Shown piece after piece: positions 41,940 through 51,388 of a stretch of DNA of 64,000 nt; within the stretch, counting starts at the first letter, position 1; each line of letters opens with the position of its first letter. A program made the position numbers and the translations under genes. This DNA comes from a virus (lineage: Duplodnaviria; Heunggongvirae; Uroviricota; Caudoviricetes): IMG/VR virus record IMGVR_UViG_2579778660_000001, one strand, 5' to 3'. Below the pieces are notes generated by a model that was not told the DNA's origin, ran no database searches, and saw only the letters and a list, made by a program, of their open reading frames with translations.

Positions 41940-42782
41940 TCATTGATTCACCTCCTGCGGCGGTTCTGGTAGCGGCATCCAGTGGGTTACCTCTTTGAGA
42001 TGCAGGTCTTCGCCGTCGCCGTCATCCCACGTTGGATTGCCATCATCAAACCAGTCGCCATATACGCCAACCTGAGTGTTTGGTATGTTGGGCCAATAGT
42101 TATTTTTGAAATCAGCAGCTAATACATAGCGCTGCTTTTCACCCATTTCCGGCATCCGCTCGCTTACCGGAATCCATTTACCCGGCACGGTAGCGGGTTC
42201 ACTGCCGGGTAGTTGCGGCGCGGCTGCGAGCATGGCCTCGGTTTCCGCAATCAGGTTGTGAGGTAGTTGGCATCCTGCATTTTGCATGCCGTGGCCAAAT
42301 GCCAGCCAGCGCCGAAGCATGTCCGCTGAACCATCCGGAATTACCGGAGAGTTGCCAGCCAGCGCGTTCAACTTGTAAGCCTGGCTTACAGGTTCGGCAC
42401 TATGAAGCATGGCAGCTCGGCAGGCGTTCCAGCCAGATGTTCGCCCAAGCGCGTAAACTTCAGATGGCTCAAGATAATCAATGTCATGCCCGTCCTCATC
42501 GTCGTTCTCAGGTAATGCAGCAGGTACTACCGGTACTGGCGGGGCGGCATAAACAGGAATAACGTCCGATTGCTCTTTATTGCTTTCATCCGTTAAAGCC
42601 CAGAATAATTTTCCAGCCGGATGTTTGAAAATATAAGCAACTGGTTCTGCTTCCAGCGATGCCAGAGCAATTCGTGCCAGTTCTTCCGCTTCTTCTGCTG
42701 GCAGTACAACGTTGCTACCAGGTCCGTATGTTTCGCGCCACTGCTTGATTGTCAGCAGTCGCTCTTTGGTAATAGTGGTCAT
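41940..42782 (-). CDS. DUF551-like phage protein, 280 aa
   Basis: C-terminal ...THWMPLPEPP, the characteristic DUF551 ending (recalled). Confidence 0.45.
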   Translation of the reverse strand: MTTITKERLLTIKQWRETYGPGSNVVLPAEEAEELARIALASLEAEPVAYIFKHPAGKLFWALTDESNKEQSDVIPVYAAPPVPVVPAALPENDDEDGHDIDYLEPSEVYALGRTSGWNACRAAMLHSAEPVSQAYKLNALAGNSPVIPDGSADMLRRWLAFGHGMQNAGCQLPHNLIAETEAMLAAAPQLPGSEPATVPGKWIPVSERMPEMGEKQRYVLAADFKNNYWPNIPNTQVGVYGDWFDDGNPTWDDGDGEDLHLKEVTHWMPLPEPPQEVNQ

Positions 42783-43120
42783 TTGTTAATCCTCAAAACT
42801 TTATGCCCGGGCGCAAAAGCACGCGTTTTGTCTTTGCTTATTCGCCAGCCATCCTTGCGCGCCTCTTTTGCACAGCCAGCCCATGACGTACCTATATACT
42901 CACCGAAGTCTGGCGACTTATATTTGCCATCTGTACACTGGAGGCAGTCACAATAGAGATGCATGGTGTAACTTGCGGCAATAGCCATATCACTCTCCTT
43001 TAGTGCGCAAATGGTTTTTTCCAGCGGTTTTGCGCCGCGCTGGGCTTTTTGCAAAAACCACAATCCATCATCCCGTAATATTTCATCAACCCCATCCGTC
43101 GGTTGCTGAGTCTCACCCAC
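42779..43120 (-). CDS. hypothetical Cys-rich protein (alternative: two coupled small genes, with the distal one starting at the internal ATG after AAGGAGAGTGAT)
   Basis: GTG start without RBS; an internal copy of the junction motif TAAAGGAGAGTGATATGG suggests the real gene is the 69-aa C-terminal part (MAIAASYTMHLYCDCLQC...). Confidence 0.35.
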   Translation of the reverse strand: MGETQQPTDGVDEILRDDGLWFLQKAQRGAKPLEKTICALKESDMAIAASYTMHLYCDCLQCTDGKYKSPDFGEYIGTSWAGCAKEARKDGWRISKDKTRAFAPGHKVLRINK

Positions 43121-43351
43121 TGCCAGACGCCAGGAGCGTTTCTACGAACTAACAGAATCTTTGCTTTACGGTTTTTCATCGCTTTGCTCTCCTGCGTCTC
43201 TTTGCTGCTCGTCGTGCCGCTGCAATACCGGTATGGCGGCGCTTTGGTGCCGGGATGATGTTGTCAGCCATCAGGACATGTGGCTTTGCAATTAGCGCAG
43301 AAGCCCAAAAACGAGTCGGGTACGGTAACAAGCCGATACATGCCACACGCA

Positions 43352-43609
43352 TTACTCACCTCCTTTAATGCGAATGCCAGCGGCGCGGATGGCGTCAGCG
43401 CAATAATCGATAGCGCAGTTGTGTCCTTTGCCGAAATCATCCTCAGCCATCACTTTGTCATCGAGTTTTATCTCGATAGCTGCGCGAGATGCCTGCCATG
43501 CCCTCCATGCCATTTCCGTGGATGAATAAACATACCCGCAATCACCATATACAAGGCTTAAATTTTGCTTTTTCGCGAACTCCAAAAACTGCTTTCTTGA
43601 TTCGTCCAT
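43352..43609 (-). CDS. hypothetical protein, 85 aa, ending ...GIRIKGGE
   Basis: Start re-assigned to MDESRKQ (ATG 2 nt after the upstream stop, RBS GGAGAG embedded in the upstream C-terminal codons). Confidence 0.45.
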   Translation of the reverse strand: MDESRKQFLEFAKKQNLSLVYGDCGYVYSSTEMAWRAWQASRAAIEIKLDDKVMAEDDFGKGHNCAIDYCADAIRAAGIRIKGGE

Positions 43610-43610
43610 A

Positions 43611-44513
43611 TCACTCTCCTTTGATGCGAATACCAGCAAGCCAGTTTCTTATGCCGATATATTCAGCATTCCTGAAACCGCTTTTTACATATATAAATGG
43701 CAAGCGAAGATTGTGACCATTGGCTGCCAGGTAGTCTTTACAACCCTGTTCGGTGAAACAGCAGGTAACGAATTCATCAATATCTTTCACAGCAACGCGC
43801 CGCCATTTTTCTGGTGGCTCTCGAAAGTTTTCGTGAAGTAGTTCGAGACGACGACTTTGGCGTTTATTGGCTTCATTGCCATCTTCATCAACCCAGACAA
43901 TCCGGTCATAGTCATAATCAGCATCAACAACGATTTCGCGCTTTTGATACACACAAAACATAGGGTCTGACGTTATTCGATTATCCTGTGTTCGAATATT
44001 TTCACCGATGATGCCAAACGAATCTGGTGCAGATTTTGTCTGCAACTCTTCGATACGTTCAGCCATCGCAGCACACTCTTCAAAGTTGCTTAATGCTTTT
44101 CGCTCCGATTCAGCGCATTGTTTTTCCAGTTCTGCTATGCGCTTACCTCCATCCGCGATTACTCCCTCGTAATGCTCGCGCTGCTCGTTGAGTTTTGATT
44201 TTGCCGACTCCAGTTGTTTTGTTAGTTCCACAATACGGCAAACATCGTTGATACGCGTTTCCTCTAATGCGTTGATCTCATCCAGTAGTGCCAGTGCAAC
44301 TTTTGGTGGGATAGCCGCGATATAACGGGCATTGGCACTAGCGTTCCTCTGTCCATCAATGCCAGGCCAGTCAATAAAGTATCCGCAATGCCTACCCTCA
44401 GACGTGCGCGCAGGATAAATGCCGTTATGTCCCGGCAAAATATATGCTACCCATTCATCTTGCGTTGCCTGCTCCGCTGCCTCGCGCAACTCCTGATAGT
44501 TAGTTTCACTCAC
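43611..44513 (-). CDS. Ead/Ea22-like protein, 300 aa, ending ...GIRIKGE
   Basis: N-terminus MSETNYQELREAAEQ and coiled coil paralogous to 48635-49120; the C-terminal IKGE codons carry the RBS for the next gene. Confidence 0.5.
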   Translation of the reverse strand: MSETNYQELREAAEQATQDEWVAYILPGHNGIYPARTSEGRHCGYFIDWPGIDGQRNASANARYIAAIPPKVALALLDEINALEETRINDVCRIVELTKQLESAKSKLNEQREHYEGVIADGGKRIAELEKQCAESERKALSNFEECAAMAERIEELQTKSAPDSFGIIGENIRTQDNRITSDPMFCVYQKREIVVDADYDYDRIVWVDEDGNEANKRQSRRLELLHENFREPPEKWRRVAVKDIDEFVTCCFTEQGCKDYLAANGHNLRLPFIYVKSGFRNAEYIGIRNWLAGIRIKGE

Positions 44514-44700
44514 TATCTGCTCCTTCCGCTTTCTCTGCTTTATCCGCCATGATTTCCAGCTTTTGTGCTGCTGATGCCGCTAACATTTGAAATTCTTCAT
44601 CTGTTTCAACTGGAATTGGTACAAACCTGACTCCAATTTGAGCAAGGCTATGCGCCATCTCTAGACTTGCTCTTAACTCTGCTGGTGAGGCTTTATTCAT
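44506..44700 (-). CDS. hypothetical small protein, 64 aa
   Basis: Overlaps the downstream start. Confidence 0.35.
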   Translation of the reverse strand: MNKASPAELRASLEMAHSLAQIGVRFVPIPVETDEEFQMLAASAAQKLEIMADKAEKAEGADSE

Positions 44701-44796
44701 TTGGCTTCCTCCTTCCGATACATCATGATTGCCAGACCTCCCTTTGTAGTAATGCGGATGGTGCTGCCTGGCTCCATGCTCATGCCTTTATCCCAA

Positions 44797-45792
44797 TCAG
44801 TTATTAAACGTGATTACTCCGCGCTCGATGGCGAAGTCAAAAAGCTGGTTAGCGGCTACGTAAAGGCGTATGCCATGTGCTTTTTCCCATGCCCGGACAT
44901 CGTTTTCTGCGCTTCTGGCGCAGTCATCGCAAAGAGGAACAGCCCAGCGGTCGTGTTCGTTTAACGAGCGGGCGCGGTACATGAACGGGTGGTTAACTTT
45001 GCCACCGCATCCGATGCACGGACGAGAAACCACAAACCGGAGATAAGCCGGGCTTTTACCGAGGACCGCTTTTGGTCGGCGCATATAAAGCAGGCCGGAA
45101 TCCTCATCTACAGACAGGTTGACGATCTGCTCTGCGGTTATGTCCACCAGCTCGCGGGTACTGTGCTCCCAGGTGATATCTGATTCTTTCAGCGTACCGG
45201 TAGGGATTTCAGTTTTTGGCTGACAAAATGCAATGCGACCGGCTTCATCTGGCAGCTCATCTTTCAGATTCCGGCGAATGGCCCAAAAAGTGAGTTCAAC
45301 CATACTCAGATCGCGTTCTGGCGGTAGTTTTAACTCGCTCGCAGCCCAGTTCATAACCCAGTTGGCACGATTCAGGGATAACTGGTCGTCCAGCTTGCTG
45401 TACCCCTTCATCATGTATTCCGCATCATGCTTCCAGCACAGGCGAACGGCAGAGCCGTTATAGAAATGAGTGGTTAGCTGGTGGCTGCAATCGCGCTTAT
45501 CGTGCGCCTGGCAATCGTGGATATTGGAACTTACCCAATGAACAAGCGAATCTTCACCGCCCAACGCGTTAAATACGCGCTCGCTTTGAAAAAACGGTTT
45601 CAGAGACTGGTTGGCAACCAGCGAATAATTCAGATCCACTACGCCATCTGGAGTGTTTTCAGCCTGTTCACGCGGAAGTGGGGAGATAATGAAACGGCGA
45701 CCTGCGCCAATGTAGTTACTGGTGGGCTTGTCTACCGGAAAGACAGCCACACCAGCTCCGTTTACGAAATGAGGTGTGATTATTGCACTCAT
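44797..45792 (-). CDS. hypothetical protein with C-terminal Cys4 cluster (CxxC...C..C), 331 aa
   Basis: Long ORF; an operator-like site in its upstream region. Confidence 0.5.
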   Translation of the reverse strand: MSAIITPHFVNGAGVAVFPVDKPTSNYIGAGRRFIISPLPREQAENTPDGVVDLNYSLVANQSLKPFFQSERVFNALGGEDSLVHWVSSNIHDCQAHDKRDCSHQLTTHFYNGSAVRLCWKHDAEYMMKGYSKLDDQLSLNRANWVMNWAASELKLPPERDLSMVELTFWAIRRNLKDELPDEAGRIAFCQPKTEIPTGTLKESDITWEHSTRELVDITAEQIVNLSVDEDSGLLYMRRPKAVLGKSPAYLRFVVSRPCIGCGGKVNHPFMYRARSLNEHDRWAVPLCDDCARSAENDVRAWEKAHGIRLYVAANQLFDFAIERGVITFNN

Positions 45793-45833
45793 AATGTATA
45801 CCGACTCTGTTTTGTTCCGAGCGGTAAAATAAT

Positions 45834-45866
45834 ATGTTAGAAAACTAAAATCAACGTTCTAACGTA
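45834..45866 (+). promoter_or_regulatory. operator-like pair (ATGTTAGAAAACTAAAA plus inverted half-site CGTTCTAACG)
   Basis: Motif copy with partner forming GTTAGAA-N15-TTCTAAC. Confidence 0.5.
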
Positions 45867-45890
45867 ATTTTGAGTGCGTAAATGATTTGA

Positions 45891-46583
45891 TCAGACTTTA
45901 AGCTGCCCTCCCTTCACCTGCATTAGCGTCAGATTTCCGCAAAAAACCGCGCCCGTGTCTATGTAGTGCTGATTCCAGTATGCTTTTGGTCTTCGTACCG
46001 GTGTGTGCCCAAAGATAAAGCGATCTGCGCCTGTGATTTCTCCACCAATGCCATCTATCGAATCACCGACGCGACTGCGCGACCAGACAACATCAAAAAG
46101 CGACACATCCTTACCGAACTGGTACTCTCCACCTGGATAGTCGGCATGGGCTATAACGATAGTTTCATGCCCGGTGTTCAGCTCAATGATATAGGGCAGA
46201 CGCTTTACCAGCTCCACCAGCGCCCAGGCTAATATTTCCTGATCAGTGTCCAGCATGAAGAACCATTGTCCGCCATTCATTAGCCAGTTATTCACGTTGC
46301 CATCAGGACTTAACGCATCAAGCATCAACCGCTCATGGTTCCCCATTACTGCCCTGAACCAGGGCATCTGCAATAGTTCCAGACATTCGACATTTTCAGT
46401 ACCGCGATCGATAAGGTCGCCAACCGATATCAGTAAATCCTGCGCCGGGTCAAAATCCACACGATGGAGTTCGGACATCAGTCTGGTGTAGCAACCATGC
46501 AGATCACCAACAACCCATATGTTTCTATAGCCAGAACCATCAATACGGCTATATAAATTCACTTCATGCAGAGCCTGGGTCAT
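45891..46583 (-). CDS. Ser/Thr protein phosphatase (lambda-PPase-type calcineurin-like metallophosphatase)
   Basis: Motifs GDLHG, GDLIDRG and GNHE. Confidence 0.8.
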
Positions 46584-46891
46584 GCGGCAACCTTCTCACG
46601 CAGCCAGATACAAACCGGACCATCTTCAGTGTCATGAATAGAGCCAACAAACCAGCCTTCACCCTCTGGTCGCTCCGGTTCCCAGGCGGCAATATCGGGA
46701 CCAGCTGCGTCCAGATCAAAATCATCTTCATCCATACTGCGAATAGTCCACTGAAGATTATTTTCCTTCATCCAGGCGTCAAATTCCTCAGTGGAAATAT
46801 ATTCACGGCCTGCGCAAAACTTTTCATACTCCGGATGTGTCCAGCAGCCATATTCATCACGTTCTACCGGCATTTCTTTAATTGTGCTCAC
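46580..46891 (-). CDS. hypothetical acidic protein, 103 aa
   Basis: ATGA-type overlap. Confidence 0.4.
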
Positions 46892-47112
46892 TCTTCATCC
46901 TCCAAGTCGGCAACGGCCTCCATCACATCAGAACCGCGAATAAACTCAAAAGCACGGCAAGCCATTTCAAACACCTGTTGTTCTTGCGGATGCGGTGACT
47001 CCCAATACTTAAAACCAGGTCGATGCTCGTAACCCATCATGGAATAAAAATCGCCAGCAAGTTCAATCGCGGCATCAACAAGTTCGCGATTTGTCATCGT
47101 TTGTTCTGTCAT
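46888..47112 (-). CDS. hypothetical small protein, 74 aa
   Basis: Operon context. Confidence 0.35.
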   Translation of the reverse strand: MTEQTMTNRELVDAAIELAGDFYSMMGYEHRPGFKYWESPHPQEQQVFEMACRAFEFIRGSDVMEAVADLEDEE

Positions 47113-47417
47113 TTTGTTTTCTCCTGTCTGAACATCACTATCATCAGGTCGCCTTTTGTCGCTATCCTCGCTGTTGTGCCTGGTTCAATGCTGCCAAGTT
47201 CAAATGCGTCATAGAACGCTTCTAATGCCTTCTGGCGTAGTTCCTGTTTGCGCCGTTTTTTCCACTGTTTCAGGAAAATGGAACCCAGCCATCGCCATGT
47301 ACGGGACATGATGAAAAACCAACCGAGAAGTGCCAGACCGGTATTCAGGAGCGTATCGATCGTTATTGTCGTGTCGATATTCACTGGCTGCTTCCGTTGC
47401 GAATCTGTTCCGCCCAT
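47109..47417 (-). CDS. small membrane protein, 102 aa
   Basis: Hydrophobic helix; overlaps neighbours. Confidence 0.35.
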   Translation of the reverse strand: MGGTDSQRKQPVNIDTTITIDTLLNTGLALLGWFFIMSRTWRWLGSIFLKQWKKRRKQELRQKALEAFYDAFELGSIEPGTTARIATKGDLMIVMFRQEKTK

Positions 47418-48313
47418 TCTTCAAGGGATTTCTCCGCATATTCACCGGACAGGCCATCAAGCGGATGCGGTTCATTAGCCAACTCTTCTTTCGCTGACAA
47501 AATCATGCGTGTAACGTCGAAAACTTCACGCAAAGACTTATTGATAAATCCGTGATTGAACGCAGCAGCAAGACGGCTTGCGGTGTAGTTAATCCCCTCG
47601 TTGCGTGCCTCCGCACGTACTTCAGCCAGGAAAGCGTCGGTTGCTGGGGTGTCGATATTAGGCAGAAGCGCATAATCGCAAATCGTATCGATCGCAGGAT
47701 CACAACAGTCATCCTCGTTGCGTGGTCGTTCGCCAACCTTCGTTGACGATTGCATGATGATTCCCCAGCAAATACTATCGACCTCTTCGCTCCATCCATC
47801 GCAAGCATCACCGCGATAGTCGTCGATTGCAGCCTCAGCCGATTCGATAGCTTCCTCAGCAGTTTTGTGCCATTCGAAATTATGCTCAGAGCCATATGAG
47901 AAATATGAATGTCCCGCCTTCAGCCCCGCATTCTCCGCCGCCAGCGCCGCGCAATTACCCTCCAGCTCTGCAATGCGCTGTTTTGCGGCATCAAGTTCAA
48001 TCGATAATTTTTCCAACTGCTCTTTATGCTTCTTGTATTCCTGATATGCGTGCCAGGACTGACCTTTGCGCACACTATCAGTAATATCAGTAATCTGTTC
48101 TGGTGTTAGCGTGGTCAGTGGCTGTGCTGGGAAAATCAGCACTTTCCCGGAATCCCAATCAAAACCAGCGTGAATTGACTGAACCTCAACTGAAGGTGTT
48201 GAACCAATGCTGCCAGGCGAATGAACAACGATCGTTACATCCATATCGCGACGATGGCTGTGGTTGTTGGACAAAATACGATTCACCAACTCAGAAAATT
48301 TGGAAAATTTCAT
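47381..48313 (-). CDS. Ea22-like protein, about 310 aa
   Basis: Start re-assigned to MKFSKFS (ATGA overlap with the upstream stop); C-terminal domain paralogous to 49117-49626 (TPATD.FL.EV..EAR.EG...). Confidence 0.5.
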
Positions 48314-48633
48314 GCTGATTCCCTTTGATCTTCCTGGATAATGTTGTTGCAATCTTTCACGCACTCGTTGCAGATGAAAGCGTTGTCCCCAGCAATTAAC
48401 TTTTTAACGGTGTGCTGGGATTTGTTGCAGAAGCTGCAATAAAGCGTTGGACTGGCTGATACGGATGGTGCGCCAGATGTCAGCCGCGCGATGTCGTTCT
48501 TGCGACGCAATATCACACGGCTGCACTCAACCAGCATCTCCGGGGATATACCCTCCTCCGTGGCGAGCGCCTCCAGACGTTCGAGCAAGCGAAATACTTT
48601 TTCCTGGGTGATTGCATAATGCGATGTGGTCAT
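48310..48633 (-). CDS. small protein with ClpX-type N-terminal zinc-binding domain (C4 zinc finger), 107 aa
   Basis: [27 protein letters not shown] parallels the ClpX ZBD [27 protein letters not shown] (recalled); start re-assigned to MTTSHY (RBS from the upstream IKGE codons). Confidence 0.55.
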
Positions 48634-48634
48634 C

Positions 48635-49120
48635 TCACTCTCCTTTGATGCGAATGCCTGTTGCAATGCTGTTTATGATGCTGTCAGTGCATGGGGTAGA
48701 AAGCTGGGCATCTCCAGCAATTTTCATGACATCAACATCTGCATATCGAATACCGAGGTGTATCAGACCGGCTATACCTGACTTAAGCCGAGCATTTTCC
48801 ATAAACAGATCCTTTGCCCGCTGTTTTTCTGCCTCAAGCTCAACGCGCAACTTCCCTACCGTTAGCGCAATATCCTCGTTCTCCTGGTCGCGGCGTTTGA
48901 TGTACTGCTGGTTTCTTTCCCGTTCATCCAGTAGTGCCAGCACGGTTTCTGGTCCGGCCAGAAATTTGAAGGCGTTGAGCGCATCAATATCCACACCGTA
49001 ATCTTTAAGTTCCTGTTCACTTAACAAATCATCATCAGCTGGCAACATTAACAGGCGTTCCATTGCTGGAATTGCACGTTCCGCCGCCTCACGCAGTGCC
49101 TGATAATCAATCTTGCTCAT
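48635..49120 (-). CDS. Ead/Ea22-like coiled-coil protein, 161 aa, ending ...GIRIKGE
   Basis: Paralogue of 43611-44513. Confidence 0.45.
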
Positions 49121-49626
49121 TGGATGACTCCTTTACGAAGCTGTTCGGCGATATCTTCGAGAACGCCATCAGAGAATGAGCGGTCAAAATCGCCTTCCGG
49201 CGCATTAGCCATAAACTCAGTAGAGGTAAGAATCATCCGGGCAATATCCGCGGCGTTCTTCGCAGTATCATCAATAAAACCAGCTACCCAGGCAGCCAGC
49301 ATTCTGTTCGCCACAAAGTAAGCGCCCTCCTTGCGTGCTTCAGTCTTCACTTCATCCAGGAAAGTGTCGGTCGCAGGAGTAGTTTTTTGTGGTGATAGGG
49401 CGATACGAATTGTTTCAAGAGCTGGATCTATTTCCACTGTTGGCACCTTGATAAAACCAAGCTGCACGCCATTCATAATGAACGTGCGGCGATCCTCACA
49501 TATCGCCTTCAGTCTCGCATTCTCCGCAGCCAGCGCCGCGCGCTCTTTCTCAAGTCGGGAAATTTCCGTTACATACTCAGCGTTACGCTCTGCCAGTTGT
49601 GCGGGCGTTAAACCTTCAGACTTCAT
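49117..49626 (-). CDS. Ea22-like C-terminal-domain protein, 169 aa
   Basis: Paralogue of the C-terminus of 47381-48313. Confidence 0.45.
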   Translation of the reverse strand: MKSEGLTPAQLAERNAEYVTEISRLEKERAALAAENARLKAICEDRRTFIMNGVQLGFIKVPTVEIDPALETIRIALSPQKTTPATDTFLDEVKTEARKEGAYFVANRMLAAWVAGFIDDTAKNAADIARMILTSTEFMANAPEGDFDRSFSDGVLEDIAEQLRKGVIQ

Positions 49627-49933
49627 ACACTCTCCTTTCGAAATAAACGTACTGATTAATCATGCCCAGGGGCATTTCGAGTTTTTCTGCGATCTCACGG
49701 CGGGGAACACCACACCGATGAAGCTGCCGTGCCAGTTCTATATCGCCCTGCCGGTATTTGGCTGACGGGTGAAAGTCTCCTTTCAGAATCATGCAGATCC
49801 GCAGTTGCCGCGCTTTGGTTCTGACAGCACTACCGGTACGCCCGATCAGCCTCCCAATACTCTCGACTGTCATAGTCCCGGCGCACTGGCGGAGTATCAT
49901 GATTTCTGCCCTTCCCCATCCCCGCCAGCTCAC
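49616..49933 (-). CDS. small helix-turn-helix regulator
   Basis: HTH-like segment TVESIGRLIGRTGSAVRTKARQL; start may be internal (MILRQC). Confidence 0.4.
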   Translation of the reverse strand: MSWRGWGRAEIMILRQCAGTMTVESIGRLIGRTGSAVRTKARQLRICMILKGDFHPSAKYRQGDIELARQLHRCGVPRREIAEKLEMPLGMINQYVYFERRVYEV

Positions 49934-50768: not shown

Positions 50769-50812
50769 GTTTGATCAACCATAGCGGCTATGTAGACAAA
50801 CCGGGTATTTCT

Positions 50813-51388
50813 ATGAAGCAAAGCTATTGGGAGAAACAGACACAAAAAGCCCTGCAAAAACTGGCTGATCCGAAATGGCGGGAGGAACAAAGGGCAAAGC
50901 GTCTTCAGCAAGCTCAACGCCAGCAGCAGCGTGCGCGAGAAAAAGCCGCATCGCCTGAATATCGGCAAAAGAAAATTGAAAAAGCGAAGCAATATGAACA
51001 GCGAAGAAAAGAGAAGGCCGCTTCTGCTCCTGTCAAAAAAACTCGCGCGTCACGCGGCCTGAAAGGCAGAACACTCACAGCAGATGAGCGCCGGATACAA
51101 ACTGCCATCGGTGCTCTCCCCTGCATTGCCTGCCATATGCACGGACAGCATAGCCCTGTGGTATCCCTGCACCACATCTTCGGAAGAACAGCAGAGAACG
51201 CGCATAAATACGTCCTCCCTTTGTGTAAATGGCACCATCAACACGCAGCGCCAGCAGAGATCCGCGAGCAATACCCCTGGTTGGTTCCTGTTCATGCTGA
51301 TGGAAAAATAGGCGGTAAAGCAGATTTCAGGCGGCACAATGCTGATGAAATGACGTTGTATCAGATGGCGATTGAATTGACGAATTAG
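50813..51388 (+). CDS. ref: Ref (recombination enhancement function; HNH-type RecA-dependent nuclease)
   Basis: Basic N-terminal tail with ADPKWREEQ and C-terminal HNH-like Cys/His core CIACHMHGQH...HHIFGR...LCKWHH; alternative TTG start at 50771. Confidence 0.65.
   Translation: MKQSYWEKQTQKALQKLADPKWREEQRAKRLQQAQRQQQRAREKAASPEYRQKKIEKAKQYEQRRKEKAASAPVKKTRASRGLKGRTLTADERRIQTAIGALPCIACHMHGQHSPVVSLHHIFGRTAENAHKYVLPLCKWHHQHAAPAEIREQYPWLVPVHADGKIGGKADFRRHNADEMTLYQMAIELTN

Follow-up and report, generated by a model that had tools for sequence, protein, structure and literature searches.

We describe here a block of about 31 nucleotides (nt) that recurs at gene boundaries in the genome of a tailed virus of the class Caudoviricetes (IMG/VR record IMGVR_UViG_2579778660_000001), of which a stretch of 64,000 nt, hereafter called the window, was analyzed. 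With a probability of roughly 70%, we consider this block to be a translation-coupling junction that doubles as a homologous-recombination linker for accessory genes. In its full form it reads GCT GGY ATT CGC ATY AAA GGA GAG TGA n ATG, and the same DNA, including synonymous positions, lies between unrelated genes in lambdoid, P22-like and P1/D6-like phages. As had been predicted from the sequence, the upstream gene closes with I-K-G-E codons that supply both the Shine-Dalgarno sequence and the stop, and the next ATG comes 1-2 nt later. Specifically, AAA GGA GAG (K-G-E) provides the Shine-Dalgarno sequence AAGGAG about 6 nt before the next ATG, and in each copy the upstream stop either precedes that ATG by 1-2 nt or overlaps it (TAATG). 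The resulting AAGGAG-AGTGAK-ATG arrangement, with the stop TGA 1-2 nt before ATG, has the geometry of a translationally coupled junction. Because the Shine-Dalgarno sequence sits in the last codons, a gene behind the block receives a ready ribosome-binding site, and since the block consists of the last codons and stop of the gene in front, that gene gains only a short G-I-R-I-K-G-E tail.

The window contains three full and two partial copies of the block, all in direct orientation on the minus strand and spread over 6.6 kb (Table 1). The expectation of a nearly identical junction at several boundaries thus held, one of the two partial copies being a diverged full-length form and the other the 3' half only. 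A search for ATCAAAGGAGAGTGANATGG with up to three mismatches gave three minus-strand matches compared with 0.03 expected from shuffled sequences, and exact searching for AAAGGAGAGTGW gave four matches (at 42990, 43611, 48635 and 49627) compared with 0.00 expected, so that chance is excluded as an explanation of the copies. The codon pattern GGN ATT CGY ATY AAA GGA G (G-I-R-I-K-G-E/G) also detects three copies, starting at 48658, 43634 and 43378.

Copy 1 comprises the last seven codons and stop of a 161-amino-acid (aa) Ead_Ea22 protein, AAGGAG, and the ATG of a gene for a ClpX-type zinc-finger protein. Copy 2 closes a 300-aa Ead_Ea22 protein and opens an 85-aa gene, which in turn is closed by copy 3, followed by an open reading frame (ORF) of 58 aa. 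Copy 3 is a GGE variant (GGCATTCGCATTAAAGGAGGTGAGTAATG at 43350-43378, previously noticed near 43345) with a longer Shine-Dalgarno sequence, a 10-nt perfect AAGGAGGTGA, and overlapping stop and start; this variant was also found behind other upstream genes (loci L042, L053, L067, L105, L107 and L112). Copy 4, near 42990, had been described as internal. This did not hold up: it is a true gene boundary, between a 59-aa ORF and a 69-aa gene, since RefSeq has a 69-aa coding sequence (CDS) starting from that ATG in a 98%-identical plasmid. In this relative (L122), the protein upstream of copy 4 reads through the diverged block to ...HLRTKGE*. A minus-strand A run at 43015-43020 has six A in the window and five in L122, and the 59-aa ORF (43000-43179) therefore stops at a TAA (...KPFAH*) in the window. 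Copy 5 forms the start of a 169-aa gene (ATG at 49626) and overlaps the end of the upstream gene for a DNA-binding protein. The original prediction had also suspected that several of the supplied ORF starts were too far upstream, and RefSeq relatives do start the 107-aa zinc-finger gene and the 69-aa gene directly after the block.

To follow the block in other genomes, viral contigs were scanned with the codon pattern, which gave at least 120 loci; 115 occurrences with full flanks were analyzed, and their flanks were assigned to classes by clustering the 220 nt beyond the first 30 nt on each side of the block. Comparison of the junctions in related genomes revealed the alternative neighbors that had been anticipated: 13 upstream and 20 downstream DNA classes occur in 44 combinations, compared with a minimum of 20 without shuffling and about 59 under random pairing. 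The block spans stop and start at the five window boundaries and in every sampled occurrence. Conservation per column drops to the background level within about 5 nt upstream of the GGC and immediately past the ATG, giving a conserved span of about 31 nt, or 33-36 nt with a frequent CGC GCC GCT extension. The upstream proteins belong to at least five unrelated families (Ead_Ea22 with unrelated C-terminal domains, DUF977, a weak Mom-like match, and two without an assigned family), and the downstream genes of the sampled occurrences are mostly unrelated to each other. Beyond this sample, 382 phage records contain the 31-nt block, among them those of Shiga toxin (Stx) phages, lambda, and phages of Salmonella and Shigella. 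It is also present in 3068 of 5426 complete Escherichia coli genomes, at a median of two and a maximum of 11 places per genome; of the 6703 places in all, 415 lie on plasmids.

Two relatives correspond to the window without the DNA lying between two of its block copies, which supports the earlier idea that the block may serve as a portable recombination joint. Locus L134 matches window positions 49143-48634 (97.3% identity) and then 43378-43160 (98.2%), with an alignment overlap of 24 nt that corresponds to the block; relative to it, the window has eleven more genes (5.3 kb), all located between copies 1 and 3. Similarly, locus L008 matches 44197-43606 (97.3%) and then 43007-42760 (89.6%), with an overlap of 23 nt at copies 2 and 4. 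In L112, the upstream flank of copy 1 is joined to the GGE variant of copy 3. Moreover, when queries composed of a flank, the block and a foreign flank were used, 571 and 828 E. coli records matched only up to positions 229-235, where the block ends. Judged by these comparisons, recombinants with their joints in the block appear to exist in nature.

A codon-neutral scan further detected a second allele, GGY ATT CGA ATC AAG GGA GAG AGT GAA TGA. Among deposited phages, this allele is confined to those of Yersinia enterocolitica, where it forms the end of a small-protein family (MDITKS...LRTAGIRIKGESE) whose E. coli counterpart is the 85-aa gene at 43352-43609. The Yersinia-type family was sampled by a DNA pattern for its conserved 5' end only. 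The 54 block-bearing genes thus obtained show 24 interior and 23 downstream classes in 48 combinations, and their block is 96.7% identical compared with 30-35% for the flanks. Because the allele is uniform within a host group and differs between groups, homogenization by recombination fits these data better than constraint on each nucleotide. In the Yersinia-type phage contigs (L123-L130 and L229-L296), the family is hypervariable: its members are proteins of 70-120 aa with largely unalignable interiors and DNA-identical ends, namely ATGATGGACATAACTAAATC at the 5' end and the block allele at the 3' end.

These observations suggest the following mechanism. A crossover inside the block, whether two co-resident phages or two copies within a genome take part, would give genes new neighbors while preserving both reading frame and translation. 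Recombinants of this type would be expected to survive, and constant copying would keep the block uniform through concerted evolution. Unequal exchange among the window copies may generate relatives without exactly the intervening genes, and the block and the conserved coiled-coil segment in the middle of ea22 could jointly bracket interchangeable Ea22 C-terminal domains. The substrate for exchange is abundant, several block copies per cell being usual. The minimal homology required by RecA and by Red is about 30 bp (PMC2327257), and the block, at about 31 nt, lies at the border of this threshold.

A number of points weigh against the proposal that the block acts as a recombination linker. A length of 31 nt is only the lower limit for efficient homologous recombination. 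The pairing of flank classes is not random (44 combinations against about 59), and classes U1 and U5 have only one or two partners. Two predicted chimeras between partners from the window itself, U2-D19 and U4-D10, were searched for in the 5426 E. coli genomes and neither was found, so not every combination exists. When the ClpX-zinc-finger gene was sampled independently, it stood behind the block in seven of 15 loci, behind another junction (...FEGKR*) in five, and, in the remaining three, was joined in frame to the N-terminal part of the 169-aa gene; therefore, other routes operate too, and the block is one among several. In a k-mer scan of the sampled loci, the top rank of the block arises partly by construction, because the loci were chosen on it. 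The amino-acid tail is also identical in the E. coli and Yersinia alleles, though the scan required the peptide. Finally, we infer both the crossovers in the block and the translational coupling from genome comparisons and from the sequence itself.

Among the alternatives, the block might be only a strong signal for translation initiation and coupling, carried passively along with one flanking gene while new neighbors arise by illegitimate recombination and are retained by selection. The 3' half (AAAGGAGAGTGAnATG) is indeed the best conserved part and stands alone at 49624-49638 and in phage D6, tight or overlapping junctions (ATGA, GTGA, TAATG) are found throughout the operon, the same genes are also found at joints other than the block and as in-frame fusions, and in locus L104 a deletion was joined at the microhomology AAAG(G)AGA. 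However, the 5' half (GCT GGC ATT CGC ATC), 13-27 nt from the ATG, lies outside what a Shine-Dalgarno sequence needs and is equally uniform. The block also stays constant while the upstream and downstream partners both change, and thus it is not simply riding with one gene. In addition, the deletion variants overlap by the whole 23-24-nt block instead of by a few bases, and the alleles are uniform within host groups and different between them. We therefore regard passive carriage as unlikely.

We also checked whether the block is conserved as DNA or as peptide. The codon-neutral scan requires the peptide and was therefore not used; instead, ea22-type genes were picked by their N-terminal Ead_Ea22 domain only, independently of the tail. 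Among 80 genes sampled in this way, 64 end in the block, which is 94.4% identical over 31 distinct contexts compared with 32-35% for the flanks. In these contexts third-codon positions are 95.8% identical and positions 1+2 93.2%, and thus no signal of peptide selection was found by this comparison in the N-terminus-chosen sample. Non-synonymous variants of the tail are common (DIRIKGE, NIGIKGE, GIRINGGE, GIRLKGE and VICIKGE). Extended or fused forms occur as well (GIRIKGEEHGNKTRG, GIRIKGGE, GIRIKGESE and IKGDAGEQNDEKP), and the tail is also found on ORFs of 31-47 aa. Since third-codon positions are equally conserved and the tail is attached to at least five unrelated families, conservation is at the DNA level, which argues for identity by descent, renewed by recombination, over peptide selection.

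Lambda retains the block without an ATG after it (GAGTGAGATC), and its joint resembles a remnant from which the downstream gene has been lost. In the lambda-type loci L055 and L090 (class U7-D8), the ea22 block is followed by GAGTGAGATCGG, again with no ATG, and a sister class of this joint has TGATATGAGCAGGAATACGGGTTTGTAA, a 7-codon ORF.

The corresponding alternative, that G-I-R-I-K-G-E works as a C-terminal peptide tag (for docking or degradation, for example), so that selection on the peptide conserves the block and the DNA similarity is a by-product, seems to us distinctly improbable. The tail loosely resembles the LRVVK tail by which SspB binds the N-domain of ClpX, and copy 1 is followed by a ClpX-zinc-finger gene, both of which are leads and not tests; the latter gene is moreover a rare partner (3 of 115 occurrences). 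E. coli-type and Yersinia-type alleles encode an identical peptide despite synonymous changes (CGC/CGA and AAA/AAG), an identity that comes from a scan in which the peptide was required. A longer R-A-A-G-I-R-I-K-G-E is common to many upstream classes, and the authors of work on Ea22 have noted a common +GE end. On the other hand, the third-codon values are the opposite of what peptide selection over long divergence would leave, and the frequent non-synonymous variants, the unrelated families and short ORFs bearing the tail, its extended and fused forms, and the block kept by lambda without a following ATG all speak against a peptide tag. Some peptide constraint on the tail may still act.

Simple duplication of one gene pair within this genome, suggested by the fact that two upstream genes in the window are Ead_Ea22 paralogues, can practically be dismissed: the paralogues are 32% identical over the N-terminal 79 aa only and have unrelated C-terminal domains apart from the tail, their downstream genes are unrelated, and the junction is widespread and combinatorial, with dozens of different neighbors in thousands of genomes. 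The outcome that was to refute the original prediction, a similarity confined to one duplicated gene pair, is thus not what was observed.

A bolder reading, which we put forward very tentatively, is that the block is more than a surviving scar, namely a maintained "universal adaptor" that would allow a large pool of accessory genes to be exchanged freely among lambdoid, P22-like and P1/D6-like phages, with the genus-specific alleles (Escherichia/Salmonella versus Yersinia) as compatibility tags delimiting recombining pools. This pool would take in the Ea22 C-terminal domains as well as the interiors of the hypervariable MD(IT)KS...GIRIKGE family. Still more speculative is the idea that the tail docks tagged proteins to ClpX or a similar partner.

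Elements of this kind are known. The idea that short conserved flanking sequences promote the exchange of lambdoid modules is established (Clark et al. 2001, on HK620, as relayed in PMC2327257). Like the boundary linkers of lambdoid phages in the modular theory of Susskind and Botstein, the block is short, conserved, placed at a boundary between unrelated flanks and near the RecA/Red minimum, and such linkers have likewise been proposed to serve module exchange by homologous recombination. Unlike them, it forms part of the upstream coding sequence, at its end, and includes a Shine-Dalgarno sequence, a stop and a start, so that it is also a translation signal; it is also documented at scale, has genus-specific alleles and reaches into P1/D6-like phage-plasmids. 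Ordinary translationally coupled junctions similarly have stop and start 1-2 nt apart or overlapping and a Shine-Dalgarno sequence within the upstream ORF, but they are gene-specific, whereas here about 31 nt are common to dozens of unrelated gene pairs. Integron attC cassettes resemble the block in outcome, because a common boundary element allows unrelated small genes to be exchanged in an expressed array; in contrast to attC, however, the block lacks an imperfect inverted repeat and implies no dedicated integrase, general homologous recombination being proposed instead. Examined as a candidate attC site, it was rejected, since its self-fold reaches only -3.6 kcal/mol and it has no palindromic arms. 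A Chi site (GCTGGTGG) was rejected as well, for the block begins GCTGGCAT and the two have only GCTGG in common.

With regard to the tail itself, the +GE C-terminal end of Ea22 has been noted as "of unknown significance" (PMC7093339), and the C-terminal domains of ea22 have been reported as mosaic (PMC10834534). Lambda Ea22 ends ...MMSDAGIRIKGE (upstream class U7), so these are the same proteins and the same tail as in that literature. The two papers treat +GE as a protein motif and nowhere mention a Shine-Dalgarno sequence. In our analysis, by contrast, the K/R-G-E codons are read as the ribosome-binding site of the next gene, the joint is at the DNA level, and it is also found on non-Ea22 genes. 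A literature search for "IRIKGE", whose reach did not extend to Clark et al. 2001 on HK620, returned no paper. Thus, while the kind of element is known from modular theory and from linkers of the HK620 type, the instance itself is clear, large-scale and previously unremarked.

Reading K-G-E as a Shine-Dalgarno sequence provides a simple and modestly new explanation for the +GE tail of Ea22, and the block offers a reason why Ea22 C-terminal domains are interchangeable. It also supplies a countable case for the debate on phage mosaicism, in which linkers with homologous recombination are set against illegitimate recombination with selection. In practical terms, the starts of several small genes are corrected, deletion and insertion sites are predicted both for P1/D6-like phage-plasmids and for Stx and other prophages, within their accessory regions, and a ready 31-nt handle is available for minimal-homology recombination between prophages in one cell.

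The block copies lie in a minus-strand operon of tightly packed small accessory genes at 41.9-50 kb of the window, where nearly all junctions are ATGA, GTGA or TAATG overlaps or gaps of 1-13 nt. The operon had been taken for a lambda-type early (left-arm) operon, which proved incorrect. The genes of the operon do resemble the exo-xis accessory genes of lambdoid phages, but the replicon is a D6/P1-like phage-plasmid: the best phage match of the operon region is the P1-related phage D6 (50% cover, 95% identity), and among genomes it is matched best by E. coli plasmids of about 92 kb. For a 7-kb query from this region, no record reached 80% cover, and the stretch is therefore highly mosaic. Other operon genes were assigned by Pfam to DUF4752, metallophosphatase, DUF968, DUF1382 and DUF551.

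Table 1. Block copies and associated genes in the window (copies numbered as in the text).
Feature	Position	Strand	Sequence or evidence
ATCAAAGGAGAGTGANATGG matches	43606-43625 (0 mismatches), 48630-48649 (1), 42985-43004 (2)	-	pattern search
Copy 1, full	48631-48658	-	GGC ATT CGC ATC AAA GGA GAG TGA G ATG
Copy 2, full	43607-43637	-	GCT GGT ATT CGC ATC AAA GGA GAG TGA T ATG
Copy 3, full, GGE variant	43350-43381	-	GCT GGC ATT CGC ATT AAA GGA GGT GAG TAATG
Copy 4, diverged full copy with indel	42986-43013	-	CATTTGCGCACTAAAGGAGAGTGATATG
Copy 5, 3' half only	49624-49638	-	AAAGGAGAGTGT ATG
161-aa Ead/Ea22 protein, ends ...ATGIRIKGE, class U2	48635-49120	-	Pfam PF13935, E 6e-33
300-aa Ead/Ea22 protein, ends ...LAGIRIKGE, class U4	43611-44513	-	Pfam PF13935, E 1e-24
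107-aa ClpX-type zinc-finger protein, class D10	48310-48633	-	Pfam PF06689
310-aa coiled-coil protein	47381-48313	-	C-terminal 107 aa paralogous to 49117-49626 protein
169-aa gene, ends ...LRKGVIQ*	49117-49626	-	C-terminal paralogue of 47381-48313 protein
85-aa protein MDESRK...AIRAAGIRIKGGE	43352-43609	-	downstream partner D19 and upstream partner U12
69-aa gene MAIAASY..., class D9	42779-42988	-	RefSeq CDS at same ATG in a 98%-identical plasmid
Ref-type RecA-dependent nuclease gene	50771-51388	+	Pfam PF16786, E 2.5e-36
Possible 28-codon ORF (MSMEPGSTIRITTKGGLAIMMYRKEEAK)	44698-44784	-	between DUF968 and DUF1382 genes

Two paralogue families had been proposed for the flanking genes, and both pairs exist; the Ea22 labels, however, were swapped, the GIRIKGE-ended pair being Ead_Ea22 by Pfam. 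The GIRIKGE-ended proteins had further been seen as one coiled-coil family. Two of them do share the N-terminal Ead_Ea22 domain, at 32% identity over 79 aa, while the third GIRIK-tailed protein, at 43352-43609, falls outside both families; it represents, in E. coli, the small hypervariable family with 5' and 3' ends conserved at the DNA level. The other pair, at 47381-48313 and 49117-49626, has a 107-aa C-terminal domain in common (43% identity, E 9e-24). Neither protein of this pair has a PF13935 match (E ≤ 0.01) or an NCBIfam match, and an NCBIfam scan of eight window proteins gave no matches; a 261-aa homologue is nonetheless named "ead/Ea22-like" by RefSeq.

The true start of the ClpX-zinc-finger gene is the ATG at 48633 and not the TTG at 48666, the RefSeq homologue being 107 aa long. 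In other phages (L008, L035 and L039), the 69-aa gene stands directly behind a full GIRIKGE block. At the end of the 169-aa gene, the K-G codons again give AAAGGAG to the next gene, with an ATGA overlap. In loci L221, L223 and L224, the opening 17 or so codons of the 169-aa gene (MKSEGLTPAQLAERNAE) run on at ...ITQ, in the same frame, into the ClpX-zinc-finger gene; these fusions have lost the Ead_Ea22 gene and copy 1 by a deletion without use of the block.

The k-mer scan also revealed further short blocks in multiple contexts besides the GIRIKGE block. The 5' junction of ea22 (AAAGGAGGCAACCAGTGAGCAAGATTGACTATCAGGCACTGCGTGAA) joins 19 upstream and 12 downstream classes, the 3' end of DUF551 genes (CCGCCGCAGGAGGTGAA) 9 and 12, and a joint inside DUF551 genes at ...SPVTPDGWISCSERMP 16 and 16. 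In the window, the ea22-type 5' end lies at 49088-49140 on the minus strand, where ...L-R-K-G-x-x-Q and a stop overlapping the start are followed by AGCAAGATTGAYTATCAGGCACTGCGTGA. The DUF551 3' end (about 41940-41990) reads ...W-M-P-L-P-E-P-P-Q-E with the Shine-Dalgarno sequence CAGGAGGTGAA.

The Ref protein of P1 stimulates RecA-dependent recombination. The Ref-type nuclease gene of the window lies upstream of the mosaic operon, about 850 nt from its start, and has the same placement in D6 and related plasmids. In addition, the possible 28-codon ORF overlaps the DUF1382 gene by an ATGA at its end.

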